From Schmidtea polychroa (Eukaryota), in NCBI GenBank assembly GCA_044892525.1, contig JBJFYX010000274.1:1-64000 (forward strand): DNA of 64,000 nucleotides, read 5' to 3'. A program made the translations under genes and the position numbers. Within the stretch, counting starts at the first letter, position 1, and the number at the start of each line of letters is the position of its first letter. Shown here piece by piece: positions 1 through 22,170 of this stretch. The notes under the pieces are model-generated. The model was not told the origin of the DNA and did no database searches. It was given only the letters and a program-made list of their open reading frames with translations.

Positions 1-1452
1 AGAACACACCCATTACTCAGGGTAGTAAAAAGTCAATGGCCTATATTATTTACGATCACAGACCATTATGGAGATACACCGCTGCACAAACTTTTAAAGG
101 TCGGGAATAATGAGCAAATACTGGAAACGATCGAAGCATTTCGCGACTGTAACATTTCGACGGATCAAGAAAACAACCAAGGTTACACTCCACTAATGAT
201 AGCAGCCAATCGGGATAAAGCTAAAGATATTATTATCGCATTACTTGAAACTGGGTCAAAGATAACCACACAAGATCACAACCAGAAAAATGCACTACAT
301 CATGCAATCGAAGGGAAAAGTACGGAAGCCTTCATAATCTTAGTAGATCTATTATCGTACGAGGATAATAGGGAGATAGGAAACATGTATGACGGGCTAT
401 TAACTGCAATCAAAGAGAAATTAATAACAATTACTGGATTACTAATTGCATGGAGGAACCCGATCAAAAACGATTATATGGTAGATATAAACGAAACATT
501 TACCAAAGGAGAAAACACCTTGATGAGAGAAGCGATGAGAGGACATCACCTATTCGAAATTCCAAATCAACTACTACAACGTGGCATAAAGTTTTCAAAT
601 CACAAAGACGAACAACTAATCAGAAAACGAATTACCAACTTCGAAAAAGCTATATCTCAATTTACCGATAAAGTACAAGTAAAATTTTGGGAAACCGTGA
701 GTGTATTATATATGATGGAAAATATGAATAACATTCGAGAAACTTACCTAAGTATTATTCAAGTTCTAACGGCAGAGGAACGCATTAACAGTTCGAACAA
801 GAAAAAGATAAAAATCAAGAAAATAACAGCAAGGGAGTCTGAGAAACGAGTCAATCAAATAATAAGCGATATAGCAACAACAAGTAAACCAAAGATAATA
901 AACTCCGACCAAGAGATAGTAGTACGTAAGGCTAAAGAAGTATTCTTGGAAGAAATGCAAGATCTATCCGATGAAGCGATACTAGCAAAAATAACAAAAA
1001 CAGTACACACCTACGCAAGAGACCAGACCACAAATCTAGACATAGGAAAAATAAAAACATTTATACCACTAGCATTCACCTTACCAACAAAAGATTCAAG
1101 AACACCATTACAACAAGCCATTTTAGCAGCAAAAGAAAACAGAGCAATAACCATCATAAGAATTCTTAGAGACTTCGGAGAAGAATCTAATGCAAAAAAT
1201 GAACAAGGAGAAACAGCAATGATGTATGCAGCAATAACAAAGATACACCCGAAAACCTTACATATACTACATCAATCAGGTTCGAGACTTGACGAAATAT
1301 CAAACGAAGGAAATTCTACCATGGATTGGGCAACAATACAACCAAACTTGGAAATGATTAGATTCATTTGTAAAAATGCTACAAGAACTGAGGTAGAAAA
1401 TATCTGTAAAACACGTCACAGTTCCAATGGAACACGATACGGAAGAGCTTAG
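1..1452 (+). CDS. Ankyrin-repeat protein, 5'-partial (frame open from base 1); continues via a frameshift near 1410 into the next ORF
   Basis: Repeats GDTPLHKLL, GYTPLMIAA, QKNALHHAI, GENTLMREA, SRTPLQQAI, GETAMMYAA, GNSTMDWAT. No stop in frame 1 from position 1 to 1450. Confidence 0.85.
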   Translation, partial: RTHPLLRVVKSQWPILFTITDHYGDTPLHKLLKVGNNEQILETIEAFRDCNISTDQENNQGYTPLMIAANRDKAKDIIIALLETGSKITTQDHNQKNALHHAIEGKSTEAFIILVDLLSYEDNREIGNMYDGLLTAIKEKLITITGLLIAWRNPIKNDYMVDINETFTKGENTLMREAMRGHHLFEIPNQLLQRGIKFSNHKDEQLIRKRITNFEKAISQFTDKVQVKFWETVSVLYMMENMNNIRETYLSIIQVLTAEERINSSNKKKIKIKKITARESEKRVNQIISDIATTSKPKIINSDQEIVVRKAKEVFLEEMQDLSDEAILAKITKTVHTYARDQTTNLDIGKIKTFIPLAFTLPTKDSRTPLQQAILAAKENRAITIIRILRDFGEESNAKNEQGETAMMYAAITKIHPKTLHILHQSGSRLDEISNEGNSTMDWATIQPNLEMIRFICKNATRTEVENICKTRHSSNGTRYGRA

Positions 1453-1457
1453 AAGCC

Positions 1458-3053
1458 ATGAAGTTATTGCTAACATGGAAAATACCGCAAAGCAATAAAT
1501 ATGCAATAAATATAAATGAGTTCTACGAAAAGGGAGAAAATGCTATGGTTAAAAATATACTAACAAAAGGAGGAACTCCAAAAATCATAATGATCGTATT
1601 AAACAGGGAAGACCTCAAATTCACGCAGAATCTAAACGAACAAAAGCGAATCGGAAAACATCGTCGGATACAATTAAGAGAATTAGTAAAAGAATGGAAT
1701 AGAAAGAGACATGCAGCAACAGGCAGAAAGGAGTTCGAATTCGAAGCAAAATTAGCAAGAAACAGAGTGCTAACGGCATACCGCAGATTGTTGAATGATA
1801 TAAATGTCGAGGACGACATTTTAAACGATAGCGGGGGAGATAAAGACGATAAAGACGACGATAATAATGAAAAAGGTCGAAACGGGAATAAAGAGAAAGA
1901 GAAATCAGAGGAGAATAATCAAGAAAATAACGACGCGAGTATGAAAAAAGAGGAAAATAACCCGGGAAACCGAATGAAGCAAGAAGAAAAGACGAATAGT
2001 GGAAAACAGAGGGTATGTCTACTTTTTACCAACAAAGAAATGGAGACAAATATGATGATAATGATACTCGTATTAACAATGGTGGAAATGATAACAGCCC
2101 AGGGAGGAATGAGAACGATAAAAGAAGCCAAAGAAACGGAAAATAAGGACAACAAAGAGGAAGAACTAAAACAAGAAAAGAAAAAACAAGTACAAGAGCA
2201 GCAATGGGATCTAAAAGAAGAATGGGATTTAAAAGAAAGGTGTATATTAGGAAGATGTATGTCTAGAGCTTATCAGAGACTAGTGTTAAAAAATGAAGAT
2301 GCAGAACCAATAACGGAAGTGGGAATACAAGAAGCGTACCAACATCGAAACGGGAAGAAGATAACAAAAGTCAAATGGAAAGAGGTACACCTGAGTAAAG
2401 GAGGTGAAATAGTGATAACACAGCTTCAACCAAGAAAAGAGCACAAAGTGTGTATTTCAAGGCTAGGACCAGGAGAAAATTGTCTACAATATGTAACGCA
2501 ACAACAACCACCAAAGGAATATACGGTCTGTATCCTGAGAAACGGTCCAGAAAGAGAATGTCGACGATACCCTGGGAAGAGAAGGAGGAAAAGAAAATTC
2601 AATGATGAAAAAGATGAGCAAGGAAAACGCAAGAAAACCGTTGAGAAATATCAGGACAATTATGTGTCAGAGGAAGAGATGAAAAAAATACAAAAGATGG
2701 CAAAGGAAGGTATGAACGAGGAAATAGCAAGAATACGAGGAATGATAAAAGGAAATGGCAAAGACGGTAATCTAAAAAGCACAGAGGCAATATCAACAAT
2801 AACGAACAAGGAAAAAGCGGAAATTATAAGCGTAAAACAGATGATGTGGATCAGCGGCATAATAATAGCAGGGGCATTTTTAATCATAACGGGGGGAACA
2901 ATAAAAATAATCAAAGATAGACAACATCGCGGGGAATTAGAAATGACCCGAATCAGAAATTTTCAGCATCGAGTAAAACGACCAAATAATATCAAGCAGG
3001 AACAGTGGGTGGAGGCCTGGAATGCTCAGCGCCCTCCAAACTCACGTATATAG
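1458..3053 (+). CDS. C-terminal ankyrin repeats, charged linker, then a membrane-protein module (hydrophobic segment 2052-2100, Cys-repeat loop, polybasic site, TM 2841-2900, tail ending SRI)
   Basis: Frame is open from 1410 and reads WNTIRKSLEAMKLLL and INEFYEKGENAM (ankyrin-like). Downstream ATG at 2040 precedes MMIMILVLTMVEMITAQ. Duplicated VCIxRxGPxxxC motif; KRRRKRK; WISGIIIAGAFLIITGG. Confidence 0.75.
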   Translation: MKLLLTWKIPQSNKYAININEFYEKGENAMVKNILTKGGTPKIIMIVLNREDLKFTQNLNEQKRIGKHRRIQLRELVKEWNRKRHAATGRKEFEFEAKLARNRVLTAYRRLLNDINVEDDILNDSGGDKDDKDDDNNEKGRNGNKEKEKSEENNQENNDASMKKEENNPGNRMKQEEKTNSGKQRVCLLFTNKEMETNMMIMILVLTMVEMITAQGGMRTIKEAKETENKDNKEEELKQEKKKQVQEQQWDLKEEWDLKERCILGRCMSRAYQRLVLKNEDAEPITEVGIQEAYQHRNGKKITKVKWKEVHLSKGGEIVITQLQPRKEHKVCISRLGPGENCLQYVTQQQPPKEYTVCILRNGPERECRRYPGKRRRKRKFNDEKDEQGKRKKTVEKYQDNYVSEEEMKKIQKMAKEGMNEEIARIRGMIKGNGKDGNLKSTEAISTITNKEKAEIISVKQMMWISGIIIAGAFLIITGGTIKIIKDRQHRGELEMTRIRNFQHRVKRPNNIKQEQWVEAWNAQRPPNSRI

Positions 3054-3221
3054 AAAGGATTATGACTGTATATAGATTGTAAAAAGTAAGTAGATAATAT
3101 TTATTTATATAACAGTATGATATATTTTTATATAACCGCGGTATCAATATTATATAATGATGGGGATAAATAATATAAAAATAAAATTGGATAAGGGTTG
3201 AAAAGTATATATAAATTAAGA

Positions 3222-3581
3222 ATGGAGCGAATAGGCGAGGAAGTAAATCACAGTACGACAACCGAAGAGATGTGGAAACAACAATGTGCAATGTTAACTC
3301 AAGTAATTTCAAATTTACAAGAACAAGGACTGGCTGTACAAAGAAGCTTAGTCGAAAGTTTAAATAAAGGCTTCGGCTATGTAAGAATAATCGAAGACCA
3401 ACGAAGAAAAATAGAACAAATGCAGCGAGAGATAGACCGAATATCACTATACAGCCAGGTGCAAGAAGAGGAGTTAATGAGAATCGCTGAAGAGATGGAG
3501 CGAGAAGAGATGGAAGACTGGTCAGACTGGCTAACCAGCAGGGAAGAGGGCGGACAAGAGGCCGACTCTTCCAGCCAATAA
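3222..3581 (+). CDS. Small coiled-coil protein with acidic C-terminus, unknown function
   Basis: First ATG at 3222 (the track starts at TTG 3198). Heptad-like helices; codon bias matches neighbouring ORFs. Confidence 0.7.
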   Translation: MERIGEEVNHSTTTEEMWKQQCAMLTQVISNLQEQGLAVQRSLVESLNKGFGYVRIIEDQRRKIEQMQREIDRISLYSQVQEEELMRIAEEMEREEMEDWSDWLTSREEGGQEADSSSQ

Positions 3582-3671
3582 ATATAACCTAAAACAAAAA
3601 ATGTAAATAACTGTAAATAAAAATACGAAACTGTACCAGTAACGAATATATGTATATATATAATTATAGAA

Positions 3672-5060
3672 ATGGATAAGCAACAACGAGAAGAATTCAA
3701 AGAGATCGTCGAACAAGTCAGAAAGTCCACCACAATTCGAATACACAACCACGTAACGTGTGGAATATGCAAGAGCTTATTAAAAGAACCTCACCAAACC
3801 AGATGCGGATGTCGAATGTGCAAAGAATGTGTAGAGGAGATAATAAAGAAGGGACCACAATGGTGCCCAGTATGTAAAGAAACCATGATAACAAGTTTGG
3901 GAGATACAAACGAAGATAAAGCAGCTGTGAAAGATATGTTAAATGCAAATTTAGGATGTAAAAACACCCCGTGCAATTGGCGAGGAGTGATATGGGGAGT
4001 GAAGCAACATATAGAGAAGTGTGAGTATAAAATCAGTCAATGCGAACGTTGCCAGGAAGAGATTAAAGCAAAGGAAGAGGAAGAGCATCAAAGTCGATGC
4101 GTAGAAAGGTTAGAAAAATGTGAATATTGCGGAGAGACCGATACCCGAAGAAAATTAACTAGTCAACATCATAATTTACAAGAGGAAAAAGTATGCGCGG
4201 AATTCAGAGGAGAATGTCCCAATAAATGCGATAAATCTGGAGTAATAAAACTCGCTCAACATCTCAGAGAATGTGAAAGGAAAAAGATAACGTGTGTGCT
4301 AGGAAAATGGGGATGTCAGAAACAATTACACCGAGGAGAATTACCCCAACATCTAGCAGAAAACGTATCAACACACGCGGAAATATGGTCAACGGTATTA
4401 CAAGAAAACGAAAGGAAAACCGAAAACTTAGAAAAAGAAATGATCTCGCTAAAAGCGTTGGTAAAAGAGCTATTGCTAGAAAGAGAAGCATTCGAAGAGG
4501 CAAGAACAAGTACAAAGATACAGACAGATCTAGTGGAAACTAGCAACATTATGGTGAAAGAACTACATCAAAAAGTAAGCGAATTGAACCTCAACGAATT
4601 AATACCAACGGCTCCATACATATGGAAAATAACGGGAGTAAAAGAGAAGATGCAGAGAGCGAGAAATGGGAAGGATACAACATTACTAAGTCCAGCTTTC
4701 TACTCATGGAAAAACGGGTATAAAATGAAAATGAAAGCATACCCCAACGGGGACGGAAGTGCATACGGAACGCATTTCTCAGTATTCTTCTTGATGTGTA
4801 AAGGGCTATACGACGAGTTAATAGAATGGCCATTCAAAGCAAAAATAGACCTCGCGATGATGAACCACCAAAGTATACGTGAACAAAGTTTCCATACAGC
4901 AGGAAACCTCGTATGTTACCAAAGGCCCCTGGAAGAAGAAGGACCAGCAACCGGAGCACCGAATTTCATCCTACAGCGGAAAGTAGAAGACATGACGAGA
5001 AACGACACTATATACATAAAAATAGCGGTGAGGCGAGACGGGAAGAGTAGGACGGAGTAG
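3672..5060 (+). CDS. TRAF: TNF receptor-associated factor (TRAF2/3/5-type): RING, five TRAF Zn fingers, coiled coil, MATH domain; intronless
   Basis: RING CGIC...CGCRMCKEC...CPVC; fingers such as CKNTPCNW...HIEKC and CVLGKWGC...HLAENVSTH; MATH motifs YIWKI, SPAFY...GYKM, NGDGSAYGTHFSVFF, EWPF, NDTIYIKIAV. Confidence 0.96.
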   Translation: MDKQQREEFKEIVEQVRKSTTIRIHNHVTCGICKSLLKEPHQTRCGCRMCKECVEEIIKKGPQWCPVCKETMITSLGDTNEDKAAVKDMLNANLGCKNTPCNWRGVIWGVKQHIEKCEYKISQCERCQEEIKAKEEEEHQSRCVERLEKCEYCGETDTRRKLTSQHHNLQEEKVCAEFRGECPNKCDKSGVIKLAQHLRECERKKITCVLGKWGCQKQLHRGELPQHLAENVSTHAEIWSTVLQENERKTENLEKEMISLKALVKELLLEREAFEEARTSTKIQTDLVETSNIMVKELHQKVSELNLNELIPTAPYIWKITGVKEKMQRARNGKDTTLLSPAFYSWKNGYKMKMKAYPNGDGSAYGTHFSVFFLMCKGLYDELIEWPFKAKIDLAMMNHQSIREQSFHTAGNLVCYQRPLEEEGPATGAPNFILQRKVEDMTRNDTIYIKIAVRRDGKSRTE

Positions 5061-5279
5061 AGAGACGAATAATTTTGTATATACTAATTATAAATATCGA
5101 TGTATATACCCAGTAAAATATTATATAGTAGTGTAGAAAAATTCCCCCAAATCTACTAAAGGTAAACTTAAGCGTAAAACTCCTAAAACAACCCCTATAA
5201 CGAATTGTAACAATAAATAAATAATAAAACAGATATAAGCGTACGACGTTGAGTTAATGATATCGTTATTCAGACAAAG

Positions 5280-6317
5280 ATGACTCAAGATCAAACGGAA
5301 GCCCCAAATAACGAAATAAACATCAGTAAAATACACAGGGAAAGATGGGCCAAAGTGATGGCACAATTATCCAATCAAACACGAAATTACCTCGAAGAAG
5401 CGAGAGAATGGGAAAACCACCAGTTCCAGTGGTTAGTGCAGAATTTACGGGCGGAGGCCGAGGCCTGCAAACGGGCCGCCAAATGGTCAGCACTAGAAAA
5501 TACCAGGCAAGAGGCACATGGGCATTATCTGAAGCAACTGGTACAAGAGTCAAGAAAAAGACTCACTGATGAGAATAAGAAGCGGGAAATAGAAAAACAA
5601 AAGGAGGAAAGGAAGACCTGTCAACTATTAGCAGAAGCCAGAAAATGGAAAACCCAACATCGAGAAATCAAAAAAGAAATGAGAGAATTGCCGCAGAGAT
5701 TGGAATACGAGAGTGAGCAAGGGAAATGGGAAGAAAATCTGGATCAGAGAGAAGATCTAAGAAGGCTCCGAAAAATCGCCGCTAGAAGTCAAACCTGGCA
5801 GACCAAGGCCATGGAATTTGAAAGGCATCTGGCCATGAAACTGTCTATGAAGGAACAGGAGAATACCGCCATGGAAGAGATGATCCTGCAACAGTCAGGT
5901 AGAATCGTTGAACTTGTGAATAAGGTGGCAGACCTCGAAAGAGACAATAACGGCTACAAAGGGGCACTAGAACAAAGAAATATAGTGCTAGCCGGTAAAA
6001 ACAAAAAATTAGAAAATGAGAGGAAGATGTATGATGAGAATATCAAGAACCTAGAAAAGGAGATCAAAAAATGGGAAAACGGCGAAAAAGCGGAGGAGTT
6101 AGAAAAACAGATAGAAGTAAGAGATGATGAAGCCAGGTATCTGACATACCTGTTGGACGAGGAACTCAACGTGTCAAGAGCGCTAAGAGACGAAGTCCAA
6201 GAGCTTAGAGCACAGATTCCCCGGTACTACATCCCATTCGATCCCATCGCACTCCAACTACAAGCGTCGATAGAAAGCGATGAAGGATATGTAGGTCAGG
6301 AAGAGACCTTTGTATAA
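5280..6317 (+). CDS. Long coiled-coil protein ending in ETFV
   Basis: 345 aa open frame, E/K/L/Q-rich heptads, same codon bias as the cassette. Confidence 0.8.
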   Translation: MTQDQTEAPNNEINISKIHRERWAKVMAQLSNQTRNYLEEAREWENHQFQWLVQNLRAEAEACKRAAKWSALENTRQEAHGHYLKQLVQESRKRLTDENKKREIEKQKEERKTCQLLAEARKWKTQHREIKKEMRELPQRLEYESEQGKWEENLDQREDLRRLRKIAARSQTWQTKAMEFERHLAMKLSMKEQENTAMEEMILQQSGRIVELVNKVADLERDNNGYKGALEQRNIVLAGKNKKLENERKMYDENIKNLEKEIKKWENGEKAEELEKQIEVRDDEARYLTYLLDEELNVSRALRDEVQELRAQIPRYYIPFDPIALQLQASIESDEGYVGQEETFV

Positions 6318-6490
6318 AGATAAATAGAAAAGATAAAAAATATAAAAATCGGGACCTATATCCCAACAAAAAAATTAATAGTACGATAAAAGTATTGATG
6401 GGACTGTAACCCTGATTATATAAAATTACCTATAAATGTATAAATATAAGTCGCACTGTAGCGCAAATATTAATTGTACATATTACAGAA

Positions 6491-7180
6491 ATGAAAATAG
6501 AGGAAATATTCGCCACAACTGAGCTAGAAGAGGGAGAAATTGAAGTAGAAGAAGTGGAAAGGAAGAAAACCATCAAGGAGGAATTACAAGAGGAGAGACA
6601 AGAGAACGAAAGATTGGCAGAGAGATGGAGAGATAATCGAAAAATAATTAAAGTATTGAAAAAAGAATATACCTTGTTAAAAGAAGCAAAGAAAGAAGTA
6701 GAGGAAGAAAATGAATGGCTCCTCGAGCAAAGAAAACGCGGAAGAAATTGGAAGAAGATTGCAGAAGAATTATGGCAGGAAAGGGCCAGTAGAAAGGCAG
6801 ACGAAGTCATCAACGATTATTGGAGAACAGAGGCACGAAAACATCAAGAAAGCCTGAAAGAATTACGACTTCAATTACATCAAAAACAAAAGGAGTATGA
6901 GATAATGAGGAAACTGAACAGCAAATATCAAGAAATAGAGGACGAGGAAGACGAGGAAAGAGGAAATGATTTCTTACAAGTACTAAACCATAAAAACCTA
7001 GAAAGAGCAACACAGGAAATAAAGGAGTTAAAAGGAAAAATAAAGTTCCTAGAGCAACAGATAGATGAAAGAGATAAACAACTAGAAGTACTGCCAGAAT
7101 TGAGAAAGCGGGTAATAAAAGCGGAAACGGAAGTGATGAGAGCGTCTGAGAAAGCCCGTAAAAAGAAATCCCGATCATAA
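6491..7180 (+). CDS. Coiled-coil protein with basic C-terminus (KARKKKSRS, NLS-like)
   Basis: 229 aa open frame, highly charged heptad pattern. Confidence 0.8.
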   Translation: MKIEEIFATTELEEGEIEVEEVERKKTIKEELQEERQENERLAERWRDNRKIIKVLKKEYTLLKEAKKEVEEENEWLLEQRKRGRNWKKIAEELWQERASRKADEVINDYWRTEARKHQESLKELRLQLHQKQKEYEIMRKLNSKYQEIEDEEDEERGNDFLQVLNHKNLERATQEIKELKGKIKFLEQQIDERDKQLEVLPELRKRVIKAETEVMRASEKARKKKSRS

Positions 7181-7234
7181 TTAAAAAGGGATAATTGATG
7201 TAAATAAATGTATATAAAATATTCGTATAGTAGT

Positions 7235-7879
7235 ATGTGGTCCGGAGCAACCCTGATAACCTTAATGATGATCACCATAAACGGAATACCCATGTGGCAG
7301 TCAACCCCAACACGTTGGAAGAGTCCCAAGGAGCAACAAGATCCAATAATCAAACTAAACAACGAAAGAAAACTCTATAACAACATCCTGAAACCCTGTG
7401 GGAACAAAGCCGTCTGGCAAAAGATCCAAATGAAACTCAATCTCCAAACCCAAAGAATCGAACAACTCGAAACTCTTCTACAAGAACAAACCACCCAACA
7501 ATCTCTAAAAGAAACCCTTACGAAGAAAGAAACCAAAGAAAGTCAAGTCCTGTTCTATGTTACAATTGGTGAAACCATCCTCATCTGCGCGCTAGTCATC
7601 TGGAAAGCGTATGATAGCTATCGAGCATGGAAAAGAAACAAACCTCAAGTCGAGAAACCCAGAAGGAAGAACCCACGACCAAGAAACAAGCCTACACGAA
7701 CAGTACATTTTCAAGCATCAGACCAATCTAACCAAACGCGAAAAAATCTATCCTCTAACCAGACACCTGCCACAACCCAACTCTCCACGGCAACAACGTC
7801 AACCAGCCATTCAATTCAGAAATCCCAGAGATTCCCGAATAACAATTTACCAAGACAAGAACGACAATCAGAACTTTGA
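7235..7879 (+). CDS. Small type I membrane protein: signal peptide, short coiled-coil ectodomain, TM, basic and S/T-rich cytoplasmic tail
   Basis: MWSGATLITLMMITING signal-like N-terminus (ATG 7235; track start 7208); TM VLFYVTIGETILICALVIW at 7547-7603; basic juxtamembrane stretch. Confidence 0.75.
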   Translation: MWSGATLITLMMITINGIPMWQSTPTRWKSPKEQQDPIIKLNNERKLYNNILKPCGNKAVWQKIQMKLNLQTQRIEQLETLLQEQTTQQSLKETLTKKETKESQVLFYVTIGETILICALVIWKAYDSYRAWKRNKPQVEKPRRKNPRPRNKPTRTVHFQASDQSNQTRKNLSSNQTPATTQLSTATTSTSHSIQKSQRFPNNNLPRQERQSEL

Positions 7880-9852
7880 GATCCTGTGACTACCCATAAC
7901 TTTGTGTATATGAATCCGGTCACCATAAGTGGCCACTGCTTGCTTTTATTTGTCTTTTATCTGTTAATTAAAGTATTAGTCAGTTAATTTAAATTTTTAT
8001 TTTTTTGTGTGAATGTTGAATTGTGAGATCAGATTAGATACCAAAGGAAGTATGATGTGAGTGGATAATATTATGTGAATTGCGGGACGCAATTTTAACG
8101 GGCCCCGGAGTGATTTGTTGGGCTAAGTTTTGAAGTAGAGAAAAACTGGGTTAAATCGGGAAACGAGCCGCGAAAAATATAAACGAAATATAATAAAAAT
8201 AAATCCCCATCAAACCTCAATAATAAATAAGGAAACAATAAAATACCCATAAAAAGAAATAAGAATAAATGATAAATAAATAAAGCCCTTAAGAATTAGA
8301 AATAGGACATAAGAGAAATGAGTTAAAGCACAATAAATAAAGTAAAAATAGAATAAGCAAAAAGGTAAGAGAAAATAAACGAGAAATTAAAGCAATAAAT
8401 AAAAAATAAAAATATCTTTAAGTTTAATTAAAACAAAAATTGCATTATGATAAAGTAGCAGTGAACCCGCAGAAAAAATAGGAGAAAAATAAGAAAAATA
8501 GGAAAAATAAATAAAATAATAATAAGAAATAAGTTAAGTTATTAAAAGCTAATATATTATAATAAAAACATAAAATAATAATAAATATTAAAAATTACAA
8601 CCTAACTAAGTCCTGATTGGATGGAAAATAGTATATAAGAAACGCTAAAAATCAGTAGAGTACCACTTTAATCAAAAACTCTACAGGTTTCAAGATTTTA
8701 TTCACAAACTACTACAGAGGACTAATCCAAAGAAGACTAATTTGAATTGAGGAAGAAACATACAGCGAACTATTTACAGCATTATACAGGAAAACCTTAG
8801 CCGATTTAACCCAGTTATTTAATCTCAAGGTATGGTAGGATATTTTTAGGTTTGATTTTATGATAGATATGATGGAATTTAATAAATATTTATAATTGAT
8901 ATTAAATTTTGTAAATAACAAGGAAAATTTGTTCAATAAATTTATTTAAAAACAGAACCTGCCTTTCTTCATGGAGCCGACGACTGTACCTTCTGATGAT
9001 TTCAAGTATGATGCCAAATGGAGAGAGTAGCCCCGAGGAATATTATGATATGTAGCCAAGAAATGTTGCGCGGATATTGGATCAGGAGCAAGCGATAATA
9101 GTGGATACGATGCCAATACTGTAAGGGAATATTGGGTTGGAAAATGAGAAAGCATCATACTTGGAACTCAGACGATATGGTCGCCGGTAATTTGATTCAT
9201 TTACTTGATTATTATTTGTTCCATTTTTATTATTTATATCTGAAATTTGTTTTTAAATTGCTGAATGCGAAAGAGTCGACTGGTCCCTCATGATCGTCCG
9301 AGAATGGCGGCAGAGATGATTGCCTTCTTGGGTGTGTTATGAGGGGTGTAGAGGCTCAGTAGGTTGGGATAACAGGCTGAAGGATGGAATTTCTTCACCG
9401 AGCTCGCATCGTTCTTAGCAAGTTCCATAGCTTCAATAAGTCACATCGATACTTCTAATAATAGCGGAGGAGATTTAAGTTGAGAGCCGAAGACAGTTCG
9501 GAGTTGAGATTGACAATTTCATCAACGTATTAAGAATCCACATAGTTCGGCGAAATTTCTTCATAACGGTCAACCCGTCAGTCGGAATAGTGAACGAGAA
9601 TGTTGTCGTCAAAGCTTGGAGTATAAATCCAGTAAATTTCGCAGAGTACTGTTTTCCTCGGTATACTAGCAGAATCTGAACCGTCGATATATTAGCGATG
9701 ACACCCGTCGACGAATGCACTTTTAAGTTAAGTGATTAGCTTCGAATCGCTGATAAACATCGTTTTTCCTGAAAAGAATGTAAATAAGTAGGAGAGGTTA
9801 TCAGATTACTCACGGAGAAATGACAGAAATCGCGGACAGATCTATCGATTGG

Positions 9853-10746
9853 TCACTGACTGAATTGAGGAACCACTGTAGGAGTTATCAGTGACTTGAG
9901 AAATGAATTGCCGGCAGATGATAACTGATCGAATTGAATGACCAACGAAGCCAGATAACACCGATAATAAATTTCCACGAGGAATAATCTAATTGACGCG
10001 TGGGTAGACCTTGTCTTGTACTGGCTGCGTAATGATCGAGGCAGATTAAAAATTCTAGCTTAGTTAATGCTCATCGGATTACTATGTACAATTCCAGGGT
10101 GATACTTGTGAACACTTAGTGATAATTCCAATATATTATGTAACTGTACACACCTACACACTCCATCGTGAATCGTCTCCCAGTAGGATAGCAGAGTACC
10201 CTTGGCATTGGAATTTGGCCGTGATGTCAAAATTACATAGTAACCTGCTCGTAATTCCCTGAGTTGGTAGGCTGGTGTGTATGAACAACAGAGCAGATCG
10301 TCTCCACTGCGATTTAATACGACGTCGAATTTTCTCCACTATCACATAGAAATAGACACACATGAAAGCTCAAGGTGGAGATACTCCAACAATGCATACC
10401 GACTCAGTTGATAAATATAAGAATAATGCACACACCTACAGGTAGGCGTCACTAGGGCGACAGAAGTAGCGCGATTTTTAAAAGAATTTTTGGAATTTAA
10501 ATTATAATTAGCTAATAGTATATATTTAAAGTCCTTTATGTCAATTCGTAATAACAATGCGCCATAAGGAGAGATAAATTTTTCATGCGATTTAGCAATA
10601 CGAAGTAGGTGCAAATTAATAAACTGAAATCCCCAACGATCGGATGCTATTCTTTTCTAATGATTACGAACGTAAATATGTTTGACTATAGCAGCCGACT
10701 AAAATGCAATGGGTATGTGTTATCCGACCCGAGGTAAATTTCTCAT
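9853..10746 (-). pseudogene. Decayed antisense ORF (~298 codons, 6 in-frame stops, no frameshift) inside the putative LTR
   Basis: One frame runs from ATG 10746 through the track ORF 10342-10614 to 9853. Internal repeat CRCVxxxxIxxLS occurs twice, 94 codons apart. Confidence 0.4.
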
Positions 10747-11119
10747 CGAATAAGTTAAAATCGAGGATTCCCCGTTTTTCTTCTCTCCATCACCTTGAAT
10801 CAATAAATCGATCGAAATGTTGTTTCCTAAATGAGTGAATGAGGAGTGTTGAATTGTGTGAAAACAAGTTGTTTTATTGTATGCCGTGGCGTGGTATGAT
10901 GAGTGAAATCTTTGAGTTTAGTGTCTCGATAGAATTTGGAACTAGATATATTTTAACCGTTAAAACGGATTACTAGAGAAAACTTAGCTGAGACATTAAA
11001 AACATCAAATTATGAATCAAAACACTTCGTGAGAATTTCAGAATTATAACCAATAAATTCTTGTACTGGATACCTTAATAAGTATCGCAATTCGGTTTGA
11101 ACTATGATTAACTTTCTAG

Positions 11120-11881
11120 ATGACAACACCATCCAACAACGCCCAAGAACTTCGTCCGTGTTTCTCTTGCGCTGACAAGAACTCGGACATCTCTCAACTT
11201 CATTTATATATAGGGGCCCTCAAGAAGAGGATAGATCTTTATGAAGGAACGTGGTTCTCCCCGCCACAGATGAAGGAGGAAAAGGCTAAGATCCTCAGGT
11301 TAGAACATTGTAGGGACAGCCTACTAGAAGAAAGCCGATGCCAAAAGCTCACAATAAAAGCACAATCAGAAGCCCTCCATAAGGTCTACATGGAGGCAGA
11401 AATAGCAAAGCGGGTACGCGAATATCCCGTGTTGGATGGATCGAATGTCTTTCCTCTCCATCACCAGTCATCTACAACTCCCACCTCAGCTTGTCGAGGG
11501 CACGGTTCCCATCTACCGCCCATCCCAGCCCCAGTGCTGTCAGGATACTTACCTATGAAAGGGGGTCCATCTGACCCAATTCTGGCCCCGGTCCTAGTGG
11601 CACCCACAGTATCTACTACTGTTGGAGGAAATCCGCCATCACGCAAACGCAAACACCCAACTAGGGCCGAGAAGACTAAGAAACGAAGAAATGCAATGAA
11701 GGCGCTCGAGGCTTCTTTGTTTGCAGCGCAGACGACAATAGCAGAGATATCCACCACTCATACGATTCCCTCGAAAGAAGTTTTCCATATCATTCCAGCT
11801 AACGGCATCAAGTTTATCTCGGATTGTAGATTGCCGGTAGACATCGACGAGTTAATTGCCGACGGAGAAAACTTTAACTAA
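11120..11881 (+). CDS. Unknown protein: CxxC, short coiled coil, Pro-rich middle, bipartite NLS-like RKRK...KKRR
   Basis: 253 aa intact ORF immediately preceded by a splice-acceptor-like TTAACTTTCTAG. Confidence 0.65.
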   Translation: MTTPSNNAQELRPCFSCADKNSDISQLHLYIGALKKRIDLYEGTWFSPPQMKEEKAKILRLEHCRDSLLEESRCQKLTIKAQSEALHKVYMEAEIAKRVREYPVLDGSNVFPLHHQSSTTPTSACRGHGSHLPPIPAPVLSGYLPMKGGPSDPILAPVLVAPTVSTTVGGNPPSRKRKHPTRAEKTKKRRNAMKALEASLFAAQTTIAEISTTHTIPSKEVFHIIPANGIKFISDCRLPVDIDELIADGENFN

Positions 11882-12406
11882 AACGGTTTGCGAGTGATCT
11901 TGAATGTATTTCGAGTCGTGAATGGACTGATAAACTTCGTTAATAATGTGCATCCTAACTGTTCGTATGATATTGTATTAATAAGTGTGATGATGTTTGT
12001 TTTATTTTCATTTCGGTATTAATATATTTTGTCTATTTGGTTCTGTTTTATAAAGTTTTTCATATGTTTGGTTTTGAGAATAAATGATTTAGTGTTGTGG
12101 AAGGAAAGCTAGTAGGCTAACGGTCGTTCCCTTGGACCAGGATCGAACCAAGACTGAAGCATGAATAAGGGTAAGTCCTTCTAAGGCACCAGTGAACCTG
12201 AACCGCGAGCGGGCTATCAGTAGTCCTAAGATAGGGGCTCACCTGTTAGTCAGCTCCGACCCGTATGGGCACTACCAACGTGGAACATCACCACGGGCTC
12301 ATGCGTGGGAATATGTAAATGATCATTTGGCGTATGTATGGGAGGTGTCTGAGCTAACCAATGCGGTCGGTATGATAATGGTTGTGTAAGTTTTCTTCTC
12401 CCTCAC

Positions 12407-12547
12407 ATGCCAACACTAATGCAGAAGATCCATGATCGCCGATATCTGATACAAGACCAAAGTTGGAAAATGCTTCAAAGAAATGTTGAAAAGATGAAGG
12501 AATTTCTTAAAGAATGGGGATGTGAGATGTTTTCAGCTGAGAATTAA
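12407..12547 (+). CDS. Orphan terminal coding fragment MPTLMQKIHDRRYLIQDQSWKMLQRNVEKMKEFLKEWGCEMFSAEN
   Basis: 46 open codons, protein-like, followed by AATAAA. A GTAAGT...CTAAT...CAG intron-like stretch occupies 12386-12424. Origin (host or element) is unresolved. Confidence 0.3.
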   Translation: MPTLMQKIHDRRYLIQDQSWKMLQRNVEKMKEFLKEWGCEMFSAEN

Positions 12548-13082
12548 ATATTTCAATGATTTATTAAGATATTTTAAATGATAAATAAAGGACTATAAAA
12601 ATATTTTTCAAAATAATTTTTAAATTGAATTTTTTAAATTGAAAAATTAAATAAGCTTTTTGAAAGAAGTTTTATTAGTAAATAATTTTTAAATAAATAT
12701 ATTTTAAATATCGAAATTTTAGTAAACGGTTTTCAAAATATTTTATTCAACGCTGAAAATTTGTTTGAAAATTATACAATATTTCATTAAATAAATACTT
12801 GGAATTATGACGTTAACCTTTTAACCGGATTTAAAAAATAATTTAGATGTTTTAGCAGCTTCTAATAAAAATTATTAAATGTTTGTCTGTTTTAAAATAT
12901 TTTATTTTTGAGATAAAGACAAATACAAATAACAATTACAAAATATTCATAAAATCAGATTAAAATCAGCACATTAAAAATTGCAATCACTATTATAAGC
13001 AATTCTTTGTCCAAACTTGTGAATTTAAAAGTGTAAGGTCAATTATTTTAAGAAAAATTTCATGAAAAAAATTTTCCTAAAA

Positions 13083-15802
13083 TCAGTACATCATAATCCC
13101 ATCTTCCTTGCAATGATTATCATCCGGTCGCTTTTGAATTATAATTGAACAGTCGATGGAAGTTATAGTGTAAAATGATAAATTGAAAATAAATCCGATG
13201 ATTCCACCAATAATTAAGTAAAACGCATTGTCCAGATGAATGTTTTTATTAATGTACCAACCAAAATTTTTTTCATCAAATGACAATAAAACTAAAACGG
13301 CTTTCTGACTTAAAAAATCATAACCAACTAACGCAGCCACAATTAAATCGATAACTGTAAAAATAATAATATTAATATTTAAATTAAAAATAAGCCTAAA
13401 ATATTTTATGTCAATAAATATAAATTAGAGCAGGGCAGTTCAAATCATATTGATTTCCACAAAGAGAAAAAGTAAATTGAAACCATTATTAAAGATTTGA
13501 ATATAATTTCATTTGGTAGTTATAAGATTAAATAATAATACGTGATATATATACCTCTTGTGTGTGTACAACATATAAATATTGGGACAAATAATAAACG
13601 ATAATATAATCTTAGGACACAGACAATCAAGGTTAATCAATTAAAAATGCTGGCATTTATATCTATTACTCATATTGACTTACATAACATAACGTAAGAC
13701 AGGCCTGGGTAAACCACGTCCCACCAATTATTTCTGTGAAGGCCTCGAGGTTTAATTGTATTTATGAAAAAAAGTTTACTTTTTCTACATTTAAACGCCT
13801 TTTTAAAAATAAAAATTAAATATACATATAATACATTAAATAAATTGTCAACTTGTTAATTATTTTATCATCTCTGACTTCGTTCAAGCTGAGACAGAAT
13901 TTGAAATTGTTCCCGAACAAACCGAACCAATGTCAGAGAGAAAGATGAAAATTTAGGATAAAATTTACAATTGTCCTTATTACAATTTAACTTGGCCAAA
14001 TTGTTTCAGTGAGTATGGAACTTAAAAGAAAATATTATTCTTTTTTAAGAAATGAAAAATATTGTGAAATTTCTTGAATTAACTGATATTAACTGTCTTT
14101 TTGATTTTGGCATTTATTCTGAACATTATGACACACTTAAATACATTCAACACTGTGTTACAAGGAAAGAATTATATCCACACAATATGAGTAAATGTTT
14201 GAATGGATTTCAATTAAAACATACTATTTATTCAACTATTATTGATAACAAAAAATAGAAACAAGCTTGGCAATAGTACGCGATTTATTTCCAAAAGATT
14301 TATAAAATACCTAATGGGCTACAACTTGAAATTATCGACCTGCAGTGTGATAGATTTAAGGGTATTGTACCATCGAGAAGGAATCTGCATATTTCATGAA
14401 ACTATTAATTCGGACAAATTCGAACAAACTTTTCAATTATCAATATCAATAAAAACTATTTGTGATCAATCATCACTGAATTTGTGAATTTTCAAATTAT
14501 TTTATTTGATCTGAATAAATTATTGTAAAAGATCGTAGAAATAAATTTACTATAAAAACTTCATAATAAATGAAAATAAAAAGGTCAAGCTGAAAAAAAT
14601 CCATTACTATTTCAAATAATTAAAAGCAATAAAATAAGCGTTAATAAAATGATTATGAATAATTTATTAAGAAAAACAAAAAGACAATACCGAAATATGT
14701 CTGAATGCATTTCATTTGAAATCTAATAAAAAGTAATTGTTTTTATTTTATTATTTACTTTGAAATGATTGCATTAGCAGTTTATTTGATAAAAGTTTAC
14801 TTTTAATGTTTTGTTTAGCTCATTAAATTAATGTTTCAATAGTAGAATAGTTTAAATCTGACTGAACATGTTATTTATTCAGTAACAAACACGTCAGAAT
14901 ATTGAAACTCTACTCACAATTCAAAATCACACGAATATCTCCATCAGATATTAGATCCACAATCAAACTTGATCTCTTTAATTTCTTCGTTGTCGAATAG
15001 CAAATTTTTTTTCAAATCTTGAAAAATATTATTTTGTTTATTAATCGATTTGAATTTTTGTTTAAAAATTATTTGGCATGGACTTTTTTAAAAATGGCTA
15101 CCTGATTCCACTTCTCCCGTATTGATATTGATATTTCCACAATGAATTAATTTTTAATTAATATTGTTATATTCAAACAATTGTATTAAATTTTTAATAT
15201 TGCAAGAAGTTGATTTATATTTTTTAATTTTCAATATAAACAAATAAATAAAAGCAAAAAATAAAATAATAAAAACAATTTCATGCATTTAATTTCTAAA
15301 ATCTTACTTCCAAATATGTTCCACAAATAAATTAGTATTGGCTTACTGAGAAAGTGTTGGGGAGATCTATTGATCACAATAAAGAAAAAAAGCATGTTTA
15401 AAAAAGCCGAAAATATTCCCAAGCATAAAAATATTTGAACAACAATCCACTCAATAAATGTGTAAAAATTGTCTTTTACAGAAGTAATTACTGAAACATT
15501 TTATAATTATAATTTTAAAAATAATTAAACATACAGTCGATGTATTTTATTTTCACTATATACCCTCCTCCATAATCAAGGGACTCTGTTCCACTGAATA
15601 ATCCAATTGATATCGTTCCAGTTAGTAAATTTGAAGATATATTTTGACCGGTGTCATAAATATTTTGAGTAAAATTTCTTTCGATCTCATATCGACACCA
15701 AAGTGGTAATCCAATAGACAATGAAATTATAGAAAGAATACATAAATTCATTATTATTTCAAAAATTAAAAATGCTTTCCGATATCGTTTATTTTTAATC
15801 AT
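13083..15802 (-). CDS. CLRN: Clarin-family four-TM protein; exons 15802-15535, 15490-15308, 13354-13083 (240 aa)
   Basis: GT-AG introns with matching phases give an open 723-nt CDS. SIGLPLW, GTISIGLFSG...YGGG, PILIYLWN and C-terminal DGIMMY match clarin hallmarks. Confidence 0.85.
13950..14490 (+). mobile_element. Degenerate Buster/Charlie-type hAT transposase fragment inside clarin intron 2
   Basis: LQLEIIDLQCD and a frameshifted EQTFSIININK, typical of GTF2IRD2/Charlie-like C-termini; many stops. Confidence 0.6.
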
Positions 15803-15971
15803 TTTAATAGAATATTATTCATCGTTTACAGATTTTTAGGAAAAATTATTTCTATTTAGAGATTTAATAAAATATTTAAATTATTTTCAAACGATTGTAT
15901 TTTCATGTTGATAAAGTAAAACAAACATTTCATAATGACATTTTCAAATGATAAACCATATTAAAATCGTC

Positions 15972-15974
<3 letters not shown>

Positions 15975-16032
<58 letters not shown>
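15975..16032. repeat. (TA)n microsatellite
   Basis: Pure TA run. Confidence 0.97.
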
Positions 16033-16036
<4 letters not shown>

Positions 16037-17065
16037 TTCTATGCTGATCTATATCTAATATATCTAATTAATTTTTATTATTTTGGATAAAGCTAATAAT
16101 AAGATTAAAAAAATCACCAGAGCAAATAAATTATTTGCTCTTATATATTAAGTGAAGATATTAAGGGGTTATTAGACATATTTGGTTTTATTATTTTACC
16201 TAAAAATTTATTTTGGGTCATTTTTGACTCCATTCTACATAGTTAATTTTACATTTATAATTTCAATCACATATCGAATTTATTCTTATCAACACCAAAA
16301 AAATTATAACGAAATTGTATCTAGAGCAACACAATCCTGACATTGATATAATCAGATATTTTAAAATCCTTAATTTGCTTTGGGGGAATTTTTAACCCCA
16401 CATTGAGTGTTAAAATATTGGAACAAATATTAGGAAACATAATTGCCATAGAAGATGGTGGTATAAATTCTAACTAGTGGCGCAACCAGGAATTTTGAAG
16501 ATGTCAAAAATATTTTACTACAATTTCGCTTATAAGCAATATAAGGTTATAAATTTATTTTAACTTGTATTATAAATACAATTTATTTAACTAAACATAA
16601 GTTATTACCACGATTGTAAAAGGTGAATTATAAAAATAAACACGTAATAAAACCAATCGGTTGGTACGCATCAAGTGGGATTTGCAAAAGGACTGAAGAG
16701 AAAAATATAAACAACCAAAAATAAACAATAATCATTAATTAGATAGTAATTGTCCAATTTTCTATTTTGCTGTAAATGGTGCAGGTATCGGTAAGTTATA
16801 CGTATTCTGATAATATCGTAGTTATTATACACCTTTTGTTTTAGGATTGCATCAGCTCTTTGATTTAGTTCATTAAATATCATATCTGCTGAATACCGAA
16901 ATTCCTCAAATTTGGTATTTACATCTTCACATATTTTAATATGTCACCAGATCAATTGATAACCTTTGCAACACCCTGCTTAATGGCAATGTGTACGAAA
17001 ATATTTTACTATCGTCAAGAGATAAAAAAAATTAGGACATTTTATTGCACAAAGTAAACCATGTA

Positions 17066-17303
17066 TGGTATCAGGACAATATCCCCCTTGACAATATCCC
17101 CCTGGGCAACAGCCCCTGGACAAATACCCCCCCCCACTCTTATTAATAATGCGTATATTTTAGTATGTATATAATAATAAAGACATTGTAGTTTATTAAC
17201 TAGTAATTATTATAAATTAATTATTTAATTAAATTATTCTTTAGTTAATTAATTGTTTATTAATTGTCCAAGGGGCTGTTGTCCAGATGGATATTGTATA
17301 CCC
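17066..17303. mobile_element. MITE with GGACAA...CCCC subterminal repeats in inverted orientation
   Basis: CAGCCCCTGGACAA on the left mirrors TTGTCCAAGGGGCTG on the right; AT-rich core. Confidence 0.6.
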
Positions 17304-18800
17304 GAAAAAGATTTTGTCCTTCCATGTTTTAGTCTTTTTTAGAGATTGAATAATGGAATTGAACAATTCAACTATTATCATAATTGTGTCATGTCATTCA
17401 ATCCAGCGTGTTGAACAGAGTTTTTCAATTTTACTTTATTTGTATCAAAAGATTTTAATGGAATAAATGGATTTCTTTTTGGTGTAAGTAAATCGTTCTA
17501 CGGCTTGCTTAGACTGAAATTAAAAGAATATATGTCTCATTAGCCTCTCAGTGGTAAACCGTTTCTGCGAAAAACCAAAACTGATTTAATTATAGATGTG
17601 AGTTTGATTCTTTTTCTTGAGCCAGTTTTTCTCTTACTGTATGGCTTATTTCAATAATAGACTATCATCTTCCGCCAAAAGCATTTTTAAAATTGCCGGA
17701 ACACAAGACTGAAAATTAGTATTTTTATGTTCTTTGAGATTGTCATTTACTTTACTTCTAAGTGGTTCTTTTATGAACTACCTAGTAGATTGAGATTTAA
17801 AAGTAAGTACAGTTTTTAAAGTTCAAATTAACCCGTTATGGATAATCTAAAAGTCACGAATAATTAAATCTTCTTTTAACTTTTTCCTTTTGTATTATAA
17901 ACAAATTTTATACTATTAAAAAATCCTTTTTATTAATTTTGGTAAAAGAGACTGTTGACAAGTTTATTAAAAATCCTAAGGATCCATCTTTGAGAAATTC
18001 TGGGTATGATGTTGCTGAGGTGTGTGAGTCTGATGAGTTAAAATCTGGGTGTGATTTTGTTGAGGTGTGTGAATCTGATGAGTCAAATATTTATACTATG
18101 CTGCATCATTTTAAAGGTAATCTGGGATTTTTTTCAAAATCTAATGAAAATGATGATAAATTTTCAGGTTTCCATTATGCCTGTCAAACTCTGAGATCCT
18201 ATTTTTTGAAAGAAATGATTTATAACTTCAACAAAATTTGAATTAATCCATTTATAATTTTTCAATTGCATTTTCTGGGAATCTTTAATAAATTTAAAAT
18301 TAGCATAATCATTTTAAACTCATACTTTCCTTCGAAAATATCGATTTTGTTCGGATTTTTAATTAATTTTGCATTGAATTTAAATCTTATTTTTATCCTT
18401 TAACATAACTCCGACAATCACAATTTAATTGTATATTCTCTGATAATTTTTGTCACCAGTTAGTAAAAATGTGTAATTTTCAAAAAATTAAGTTTTTCTT
18501 CAGCCAATATTTTGAGTTTATTGTGATTCAATATTTGCATAGGAATTAACAATTCACACAATAAACTATTCCCTTTACTCAGAATGATATGCGCATCATT
18601 CATTTACAAGCTCAATAATCATTAAAAATGATGAACTATTAAAATCTCCAAACGTTAGCCTTTAAAAGTAGTCTGGATTTCCAGGATCATTTCAATCAAA
18701 GGGCTCAGTGAATAGAAGTGAGTTATGGGTTTCTGCACGGGGATACAAATGAACCAATAAAGATTATGATATGCCAATATATAGTTTTCCCTGGTCAAAT
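17300..18800 (-). mobile_element. Heavily decayed hAT (ZMYM-like) transposase relic
   Basis: Remnant motifs RRNGLPLRG and NDPGNP on the minus strand; many stops. Confidence 0.35.
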
Positions 18801-19000
18801 TTAGATCAAACATCTCTATAACGTGATTTGAGCTTTCTGAAAGTTGTATGCAACGGCGAGGAGAGATGGATTATGCTATTGATCAATGTAAGTATATATT
18901 AATAGTATATAGTGAGTATATTCATAGGGTAACAGCCAAAAATCCGTCTCATCCACATTAAAAAACTGCTTCAACCAATTGAATCTTTGCTTTTTTAATA

Positions 19001-19255
19001 CACTCATACCTCGCTATACGGCTTTTCGCTATAACGGCCTACTTTAATTACGGCACTTTTTCGATTTACGGCCTAAAATGTTTCGTTATACGGCCAAAAA
19101 AAGTGTGAAAAAAATGAATCCAGCCAATGGATCAAGGTGCAATAGCCACTTTTAAGGCATATTATTTACGTAGAACATTTGATTCGTTATGCGGCGTTTC
19201 GCTTTGCGGCCAACTTTCCTGGAACGTATCTAGGCCGTAAAGCGAGGTATGAGTG
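19001..19255. mobile_element. Tc1/mariner/pogo-type MITE, 255 bp
   Basis: 22-bp TIR CACTCATACCTCGCT(A/T)TACGGC, flanked by TA on both sides. Confidence 0.9.
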
Positions 19256-22170
19256 TAATTATATAATTGGCACAGTGTAAAATGAAATAACAAAATAATT
19301 ATTATTAATTATTGAATTCTTATTAAATTAATTAAATAAAAGAGTGAAGTCTGGAAAATTTTCAAATAATGTTTATTGTAATATAAGATATTCATTTACT
19401 CCAATAATGAAAAATATTGCTCTCATCAAAATTCTTGCAAGCTTTTTCAATTAAAAATGTAAAAAAATAACACAAAAATGTTAACGATTTTTGCTTGTAA
19501 TGCTGATCGAATATTATTTACGTTTCATCCAAATTACAATTGTTAAAAATAATAATATAAACATTTGAGACTTCAGCGATAATTCATTTAGAAAACTATT
19601 AGTGGATCTACCTAATATTTTGAATAATTTTACCACAACCATGTCAAGGAAATCAAATGTAATCTAAATCGAAAATTTCAAAAGTAAAAATAAATTAAAA
19701 TAAGACATTGATAGGCGAAAATTCTAAAATTGGTATGCTATAATATGCATCAAAATATATTTCACAATAACTCTTGGAAAAGTAAGTTTTGAAGTTATTA
19801 ACAAATACGTTTAAAATGTTTGGATTTAAACATAGTTCTTGGTACTAAATATTATCATTTCAAACATAGATTTAAAATTAAACTACTTTTGTTAACAGAT
19901 TCATTCTTCTAGAGCAGGCATTAGAGTATCCATTTAATCCATAACAAATATATACCAATATTACAAATACAACAGCAGATTTTTTAAAAATTGTATGTGA
20001 CTTTTTAAAATTTGAACTTCTATTTGTCTGAAATTGATCATACACCAAATGATATCTTGTTCAAAAGTTGTTTAGAAAACGTTTTATAATGAAAATTAAT
20101 TACTGGCAAGGTTTTACATCAGTTTTGCGTCGATTGAAAATATTATTATTAACATAATTTTTAAATTTAAAATATCCACGATATACATGTTTTCGATTAA
20201 TAAATAAAATTAAACAAAGAAAATACAAATTTAATGTTTCCTTAATCATGCTTTTAAAAATATTTAAATTATAATATTTTCTATTATTAAAACAAGCCAA
20301 TGTTTAATATTCTTAATTTTTTAATAGCAATTACCAGCCGAAATAATAAGATAAAGTTCTTTGATAAATATAAATAATAAATAGACTATAAATTTTTTAT
20401 TTTGGATCCTTTGAATAATTTCATTTCATAAATTATATTCAATCATTTTTCTTGAAAATTATTCAGAAAATAAATTATATAAAATATTAAAAATCGAATG
20501 CTAAAGTCTATAAGTAAAATTATTTTACCAGTTTTATAATACATTAGTTTGACTTAAACACTAAAGCCGAAAAAAATCAAAATATTATATTCATTCATAT
20601 GTTACACCAAAATGTAGTGATGTACATATATTGTTTAATCATGATCATGTTATTATGGTTTTAATTTCTTAGACAACCTTTTGAATTTGAGAAGGTTTAT
20701 ATTTATTGATACATTATTACTATGACTTCCCCAATGGTGTATAAATGTTTAGGTCTCAGAAAATTGTTGAGGTTCTCAACATCTACTGGTTAAGAGATAA
20801 ATAATCTAATATATTAAAAACAAAATTGTTTCATTACAAACTTATTGGTAAAGTAAATTTAACAAATTATATTCCAGTAATAGTTTCGATTAACTTTCAA
20901 CTCGAAAAATACAAAATTTGTATGTTATGCATGCATGTTATGTTATGTACGATTTGTCGACGTTTTATATTATCAGTATTAATTTAAGATTTAGTAAGGA
21001 TTGTACTTTAATCACAGAGCTGAGGTTCTGATTTTTGGGCGAAAATTAAGAATTTTATGTGATTATATATAATAATATAAATAATTTTATATTTTAACCT
21101 ACATTATTGTACACAGTGGCTTAAAATCAATGAGCCGGTAGGGTCTACTACTAGAACTACTCATTGCATTTTTATTTTCGGGTTCATGACTGTCGATAGA
21201 AGCTCTTATGTCGCTTGGATTATTGGTGTTCCAAATGTAGACAACGGGGAGTTAAGTACTTATCCGCATTCCACTAACAATCGTCCATATAGACAACAAT
21301 TGTTAAGGTCTCCGTAAATGGGGGTTGAGATCTCAACTATATTTTACTAGTGATTCTTACTTTATATATGTATAAATAAGATAAGACTGGTTCTATGAAA
21401 GTTTATAAATAAAAATTACCGATAAAAAGGTTTGACAATGTTGTTTGAACAATTCTAGATGTTAGACGAATGTGTGTTTTTGTGTGATTGTGCTTGTTAT
21501 GTAGTGTATGCAAAACAACAGTGTATTATTTGACAAAAATTCCTTTTGAATTTTGTACTGTTTAGTAAAAGTCTTTGAATGATTGTCTTCTAAAATTTTC
21601 CAGTGAAAAATTCGACGTTGAAATTCAAATTTTCCATTGCTTATTTATATAATTTTTTATTATGATTTTAAATTTATTCATTTTCCACCTTAACATCTGT
21701 TATTATTAAAATTTAATTTATTTATCCTTAAAAGAAATTACTATTTCGTGACTAAAAACTTTTATTATTCTTATGATTAACCGTTTGCGAACGAATTTTG
21801 TTCCAGGCGTTCAACAATGAATAAACTTTAAAAAATCATACCACGATATCGGGTATTCGTATACTAAAAAATATATAAAATAATGATTAAAATTAATTCC
21901 ATAATTAAAATTAATTAAAATTAATTTGCATTGAATTAAATTGTATATACCTACTCATTTATTATTTTAATTAGGAAATTTTTTTTTCTTAAAAGTTTAT
22001 TTGTAATTTATATGATAATTTATATTACCTATATGTAATTTACAGTTTCCAAGAGTTTATAAAATAAAATTATTGAAAAAAATATGCATTGTTTAATTTT
22101 ATGTGTGTATTACTGGTTAATGGCCTTAGTTGCCAAAACCAAATAAATGAATTTAAAAAAATGTGAAATT

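Follow-up and report, generated by a model that had tools for sequence, protein, structure and literature searches.

A Giant Burro-Type LTR Retrotransposon of Schmidtea polychroa Carries a Full-Length TRAF Gene Kept by Purifying Selection

Results

A Full-Length TRAF Gene Downstream of the Polyprotein

The window analyzed here, a stretch of 64,000 nucleotides from Schmidtea polychroa, contains at 3672..5060, on the forward strand, an ORF that encodes 462 amino acids in one frame. The ORF, Pfam, sequence matches in the PDB (the closest being TRAF3, TRAF2, TRAF1 and TRAF5), an AlphaFold model and Foldseek, whose top matches to that model are TRAF domains, identify the product as a full-length TRAF. 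The nearest named proteins are planarian TRAFs; a protein homolog search yielded 1 match among 3,343 candidates and was uninformative. All domains lie on the forward strand and follow the order of TRAF2/3/5: a RING (aa 30-68, 3759..3875, Pfam E 8e-5), five TRAF-type zinc fingers (aa 96-235, 3957..4376), a coiled coil or TRAF-N (aa 232-305, 4365..4586, an AlphaFold helix) and a MATH/TRAF-C domain (aa 316-453, 4617..5030, Pfam E 3e-25). The fingers were read by eye as Cys/His clusters following the RING (C96-C117, C124-C143, C150-C175, C182-C201 and C208-H235), and despite these five clusters Pfam zf-TRAF gave no match in the protein. The model, built on a 19-sequence alignment (mean pLDDT 86.3), predicts one helix over residues 232-305, followed by a TRAF-C beta-sandwich; as pTM is 0.39, the arrangement of the domains is not fixed by it. 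The intact, single-frame combination of RING, five zinc fingers, coiled coil and MATH described in the initial annotation of this DNA is thus confirmed.

The RING has eight cysteine ligands and reads CGCRMC, as opposed to CGHRFC in the two solved TRAF RINGs (TRAF5 and TRAF6); with Cys47 replacing histidine, the C3HC4 type with a His ligand, as in TRAF2/3/5, is absent. Codon usage resembles that of the surrounding element: A occupies 0.58 of the fourfold sites in the TRAF and 0.55 in the element polyprotein, compared to 0.32-0.44 in ten host TRAF frames, which supports the earlier proposal of an A-ending bias shared with the element and a long residence in it.

The TRAF Lies Within a 31-kb Gypsy Element

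The element is a Burro-type Gypsy LTR retrotransposon with an env-like domain. The window begins inside it, and the missing part is provided by a twin locus on C2 that matches the window at 99-100%, where the element is complete (31,087 bp). Read from the 5' end, the twin locus consists of the 5' LTR, a small frame with a RING, the gag, viral fusion glycoprotein, protease, RT, RNase H and integrase domains, the ankyrin repeats, the cassette with the TRAF, and the 3' LTR. The LTRs are 4.3 kb long, start with TG and end with CA, and are 99.5% identical to each other at the C2 locus; the target-site duplication is 4 bp (CTAA). This position between LTRs with a target-site duplication, downstream of gag, env, protease, RT, RNase H and integrase, and the presence of hundreds of copies bear out the claim that the TRAF is borne by a mobile element.

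Within the window, all coding features of the element are on the forward strand. The ankyrin-repeat part of the polyprotein tail, following the integrase (1..1452, Pfam Ank), has its frame broken near the end, and is followed by a charged C-terminal polyprotein piece with hydrophobic stretches (1458..3053, 82% amino acid identity to subfamily A2); in other copies these two regions share one frame. The window copy is young, with a polyprotein frame broken into pieces. The 3' cassette then consists of a small accessory ORF of 119 amino acids with no family assigned (3222..3581), the TRAF, two charged ORFs and a hydrophobic ORF. The first charged ORF encodes 345 amino acids that are coiled-coil-like by sequence (5280..6317, 73% identity to A2 and 35% to the sister family B, see below), the second 229 amino acids (6491..7180, 54% to A2). 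The hydrophobic ORF (223 amino acids, 7208..7879) contains hydrophobic segments and is fast evolving in the copy comparison. The 3' LTR (8116..12415, 4,300 bp, forward strand) is flanked by the CTAA duplication (12416..12419), placed by comparison with the C2 twin.

An ORF of 253 amino acids without a Pfam family lies within the LTR (11120..11881, forward strand). It is open in 4/4 copies examined, in one of which the LTR is only ~71% identical there. Between 5' LTR and gag, both Burro families have a frame of 160-190 amino acids (L033:5999-6571, L133:5709-6215, L085:3990-4472) with a RING at its end that is similar to the one in the family B IAP; a BIR is absent. Other mobile elements sit inside Burro copies (L039:8494 to L040:3320; L082:7049 to L084:900), and by eye only, frames at 39366-46811 and 53568-54480 of the window resemble remnants of DNA transposons or reverse transcriptases. 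Positions 1-19940 of the window, on contig C274, duplicate G000:C2:38.76-38.78 Mb at 99-100%, flank included; C274 is probably a redundant haplotype of the C2 locus, and a few copy counts are therefore doubled.

A Sister Family With a Homologous Cassette

The sister family, B, is Burro1-like. It has a frame of 4,791 amino acids with an internal MATH domain; downstream of this frame come a small ORF, a complete TRAF, a BIR + RING IAP and charged ORFs. Family B thus has a pair of TRAF modules. One is the MATH in the polyprotein (L086, aa 173-317 of the frame), which has no RING and a host-like groove, the other the full TRAF before the IAP (L087:2003-4782). The latter is homologous to the TRAF in the window and occupies the same position, with the IAP directly after it. 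In family A, to which the window element belongs, we found no BIR or IAP at that cassette position and no MATH in the polyprotein. The ORFs flanking the TRAF are homologous between the families (~35% identity; the 119-aa ORF has 35% over 104 codons with the family B ORF at the same position), and since both they and the TRAFs are homologous, the TRAF was probably in the cassette before A and B split. RT is 92% identical between the families and the TRAF 33-34%, but this divergence is not TRAF-specific, as the other accessory ORFs are equally diverged (18-35%).

The TRAF Is Kept by Purifying Selection

The best 40 DNA matches, out of 372 candidates, are 93-100% identical. Among the 30 closest copies fetched, 23 are open, six have stops and one has a frameshift. 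An open frame of 461-484 amino acids is present in 89/118 copies at >=94% MATH identity, a share that is biased upward because these are the best-scoring copies. In comparison with the window TRAF, dN/dS is 0.08-0.15 for 27/28 copies, and 0.34 for one with only 12 differences; these are pairwise ratios, which share ancestry and are hence not independent. In one copy pair, selection on the TRAF (0.084) was similar to that on env (0.091). Between the TRAFs of subfamilies A1 and A2 (69% amino acid identity) dN is 0.18 and dS is saturated, and the RING (dN 0.168) and MATH domain (dN 0.174) are equally constrained. Silent changes are also more common among shared variants than among singletons (87:56 vs. 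59:71, p = 0.011). The pairwise dN/dS ratios of the TRAF copies gave no sign of positive selection.

The TRAF is an element gene kept by purifying selection, and the low dN/dS answers the question of neutrality that had been raised with the initial annotation. The stop or frameshift in 7/30 of the closest copies is what could be expected of a neutral passenger, the other form of this alternative being a single-copy host gene that adjoins an element. Against it stand the location of the TRAF between LTRs in hundreds of copies, the dN/dS near 0.1 and the excess of silent changes among shared variants. We give this alternative next to no credence; both forms are ruled out by the dN/dS and by the 293 copies of the family A motif reported below.

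Element TRAFs Probably Nest Within a Planarian Cys-RING Family

All host RINGs examined (10/10) carry Cys in place of His, as do the named TRAFs of Dendrocoelum. The substitution noticed in the initial annotation is therefore real, but it is not an innovation of the element, and we rejected it as an element-specific change. Both the RING cysteine and an insertion in zinc finger 3 are common to the element TRAFs and the planarian host TRAFs. The 151 public relatives comprise 82 with His, 15 with Cys and 54 without a scored RING (15/97 of the RING-bearing proteins thus have Cys). The echinoderm TRAF3-like proteins P0031, P0052 and P0060 have Cys for His in the RING as well, apparently independently; a horizontal origin together with these proteins was rejected (p-AU 0.0002).

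The full-length tree comprised 60 rows (5 element TRAFs, 12 host TRAFs, all 15 Cys-type relatives, 5 unscored relatives and every third His-type relative, 23 in all). The five element TRAFs form one group (99/89), which nests in a mostly Cys-type branch with 10/12 host rows and named planarian relatives (83/97, not starred); the amino acid composition of 4/5 element rows is unusual, and the tree singles out no donor paralog. In a MATH-only tree (59 rows) A and B were not joined freely; the tree constrained to join them was 7.1 log units higher (p-AU 0.62), which is no proof of a clade. There is thus moderate support from sequence for nesting of the element TRAFs in the planarian TRAF family, in line with the earlier proposal that a host TRAF had been captured.

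The lack of introns had been taken as a sign of retro-capture, an argument that does not hold, as the host TRAFs L089-L093 and L097 also encode everything between the RING and the MATH domain, both included, in one frame. Because host TRAFs are single-frame and have a Cys-RING, intronlessness and the His-to-Cys change are best regarded as inherited traits. Trees and gene order together suggest a single capture of the TRAF, which likely took place before the split of A and B, with an intronless planarian TRAF family as the source. For an LTR element, capture by way of RNA is plausible, and neither of the two traits demonstrates it. Of the host genes, L089 is single-copy over its full length; a dispersed repeat of ~300 bp bears a piece of 110-160 bp from its 5' end (L089:6797-6958; L168-L171), found in 38/40 scored matches at 81-88% identity.

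Most TRAF/MATH Copies in the Genome Are Element-Borne

The MATH motif G-x-[YFH]-D-x4-WPF, searched in the genome as a degenerate pattern, gave 996 matches, and the reversed control none. Mutually exclusive sub-patterns assign 293 of these to the family A TRAF, 262 to the family B TRAF and 266 to the family B polyprotein MATH, so that Burro accounts for 821/996, 82% or more; 6 of the first 100 matches are an unrelated repeat with an in-frame stop, and such matches were retained in the denominator. The first 30 matches comprise 24 that align to Burro over ~2 kb or more, five that belong to an unrelated repeat and one host gene. As the pattern finds 26/30 of the best-scoring host loci, host loci are somewhat undercounted, and diverged element copies escape it too.

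The best-scoring 30 MATH loci all lie outside Burro coding sequence and are without the strong A-skew of the element; 8/30 have short matches to Burro stretches, in the flanks only, and many of the 30 cluster on C2. Outside Burro, host TRAF-like genes in which the RING and MATH frames are separate form clusters on G000:C2, at about 105-124 Mb and 1-5 Mb (L057-L080, L094). Most TRAF/MATH copies are therefore element-borne, and a separate host expansion is real too; the initial annotation had suspected that part of the apparent host expansions could be element-borne, and the expansion is indeed not borne by elements alone.

Between 121 and 282 MATH transcripts of S. mediterranea have been published (in the accessible parts of PMC6109357 and PMC7586133); these numbers are not assignable from our census, because element copies that are nearly identical would be merged in a transcriptome. 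Planarian TRAF counts, expression data and RNAi probes need to be checked against Burro, and the census puts figures on the planarian TRAF expansion, which has been an open point. Contigs of one run that may be RNA cover the TRAF region, and were not counted as evidence of expression.

Discussion

The TRAF described here is a real, selected accessory gene of an already known element, whose TRAF/MATH cargo itself has been published. Its function can be approached through the receptor groove and the RING. Aligned to the hot spots of TRAF2 (as given in the available part of PMC6125299), with residues mapped through fish TRAF2-like rows, the hydrophobic pocket is mostly kept, the serine triad is replaced by L-V-C and the arginine by lysine. 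Planarian host TRAFs are likewise without the full triad, and mostly keep its first serine. With the triad gone and Lys at the R393 position, the element TRAF may not be bound by host receptors. In the RING, eight ligands are retained under constraint, and this speaks for an active ligase or adaptor rather than a decoy.

TRAFs without a RING act as dominant negatives. A decoy that joins and poisons host TRAF trimers, one of the roles put forward in the initial annotation, would fit with the coiled coil and MATH fold, both retained in the model, and with the predicted loss of receptor hot spot 2. However, a decoy could do without the RING and the five fingers, whereas in the element TRAF every ligand is retained under constraint. 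Since host TRAFs have the His-to-Cys change too, it gives no sign of a dead RING, and the RING-less MATH with a host-like groove in the family B polyprotein fits the role better. As the RING is constrained as much as the MATH domain, we disfavor a dominant-negative role and consider it improbable.

In our preferred reading, which we hold to be about evenly balanced between right and wrong, the TRAF would be an active RING adaptor or ubiquitin ligase that damps cell-death or stress signaling in cells expressing the element. It would be expressed in host cells and may form trimers through the coiled coil and MATH domain, with the RING conferring ubiquitin-ligase activity. It could then act on the TAK1-MKK-p38/JNK and survival circuit where the host planarian TRAFs work, presumably with an altered partner preference, since the receptor groove has drifted. 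This reading draws on the constrained RING, on the survival roles of host TRAFs and on the precedent of the Burro1 IAP. According to the accessible parts of the respective reports, knockdown of planarian TRAF-2A/B leads to more cell death (PMC7586133), traf2-1 inhibits infection-driven degeneration in a screen of TAK1/MKK/p38 (PMC4993586), and the IAP of Burro1 reportedly protects stem cells (Lee et al., 2026, via PMC13465017). This last precedent is not directly transferable, because family A is without a BIR. The reported lack of TLR orthologs in planarians (available part of PMC7958881) also counts against a survival function.

A ligase with changed partners could instead be directed at host defense, removing or blocking a factor of nucleic-acid sensing or silencing, and so protect the element rather than the cell. 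The constraint on the RING while the groove drifted from host TRAFs, the env-like domain of the element, the planarian RIG-I, TRAF3 and TRAF6 reported in the accessible part of PMC7958881, and the low identity of the TRAF between A and B next to that of RT are all compatible with such a target. The equal divergence of the other accessory ORFs and the lack of a sign of positive selection in the pairwise ratios speak against it, and we regard this alternative as possible but distinctly less probable than damped cell-death or stress signaling. It is also conceivable that the TRAF serves the element cycle itself, e.g., in the assembly or release of particles, with Gag or Env as its ubiquitination substrates. 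The element does have Gag, a fusion glycoprotein and, upstream of gag, another frame with a RING, but a full TRAF with a receptor-type MATH exceeds the needs of this role, which we find even harder to credit than the decoy.

If the TRAF does act as an adaptor or ligase in survival signaling, the full TRAF and the IAP-type RING, in family B joined by the IAP and a decoy MATH, may form a self-contained kit for ubiquitin signaling that mimics the TRAF-cIAP module, with the element supplying much of the TRAF activity. Element-borne loci of the full TRAF type number at least 555 vs. a minority of host loci. We consider this extension doubtful. If true, planarian survival and regeneration signaling would partly depend on a provirus-like element. 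After the Burro1 IAP, the TRAF is a selected, IAP-independent candidate for host-transposon mutualism.

In the literature we searched, only PMC6431247 links Burro and TRAF. According to its accessible part, which cites Jurka (2007) and Grohme (2018), the planarian Burro or GYPSM1 elements exceed 30 kb and have LTRs, gag, env between gag and protease, PR-RT-RH-IN, ankyrin repeats and a MATH_TRAF cargo; an element of Dugesia tigrina has MATH_TRAF in a separate accessory ORF, and the cargo was proposed to meddle with host apoptosis and ubiquitination. A BCL2-like motif gave neither a Pfam nor a PDB match in the family A polyprotein; the published Burro call used HHpred. The full-length TRAF architecture, its selection, the donor family and the census were not found in our search, which did not cover Grohme (2018) and Lee et al. 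(2026), where part of them may be described. Further related literature, in the sections accessible, includes PMC8532177, PMC11410931 and bioRxiv 10.1101/2021.10.12.463740.

Compared with known systems, the element TRAF resembles vertebrate TRAF2/3/5 in its RING, five fingers, coiled coil and MATH, and in a pocket that is largely kept (F372, L394, F407, Y416; Y357), and differs in the eight-Cys RING, in the triad (S-S-S to L-V-C) and in R393 (Lys) and C469 (Ala). With the planarian host TRAFs (Dugesia japonica TRAF2-like A, Dendrocoelum lacteum TRAF-2, -4 and -5, and L089-L093 and L097) it shares the architecture, the RING cysteine and the finger-3 insertion, at 25-33% identity; the host genes are without the A-skew, and most of them still encode the first of the three serines. 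The window element agrees with Burro, as described in the available part of PMC6431247, in its length of more than 30 kb, long LTRs, target-site duplication, domain order and MATH_TRAF cargo. There, the published MATH_TRAF_C motif is located in the polyprotein or an upstream ORF, whereas here a whole TRAF from RING to MATH lies downstream of the polyprotein. Finally, Burro1 with its B-IAP (Lee et al., 2026, as far as it is represented in PMC13465017) is like family B in having a MATH in the large frame and a BIR + RING IAP, whereas family A of the window is without the polyprotein MATH and without a BIR-containing IAP.
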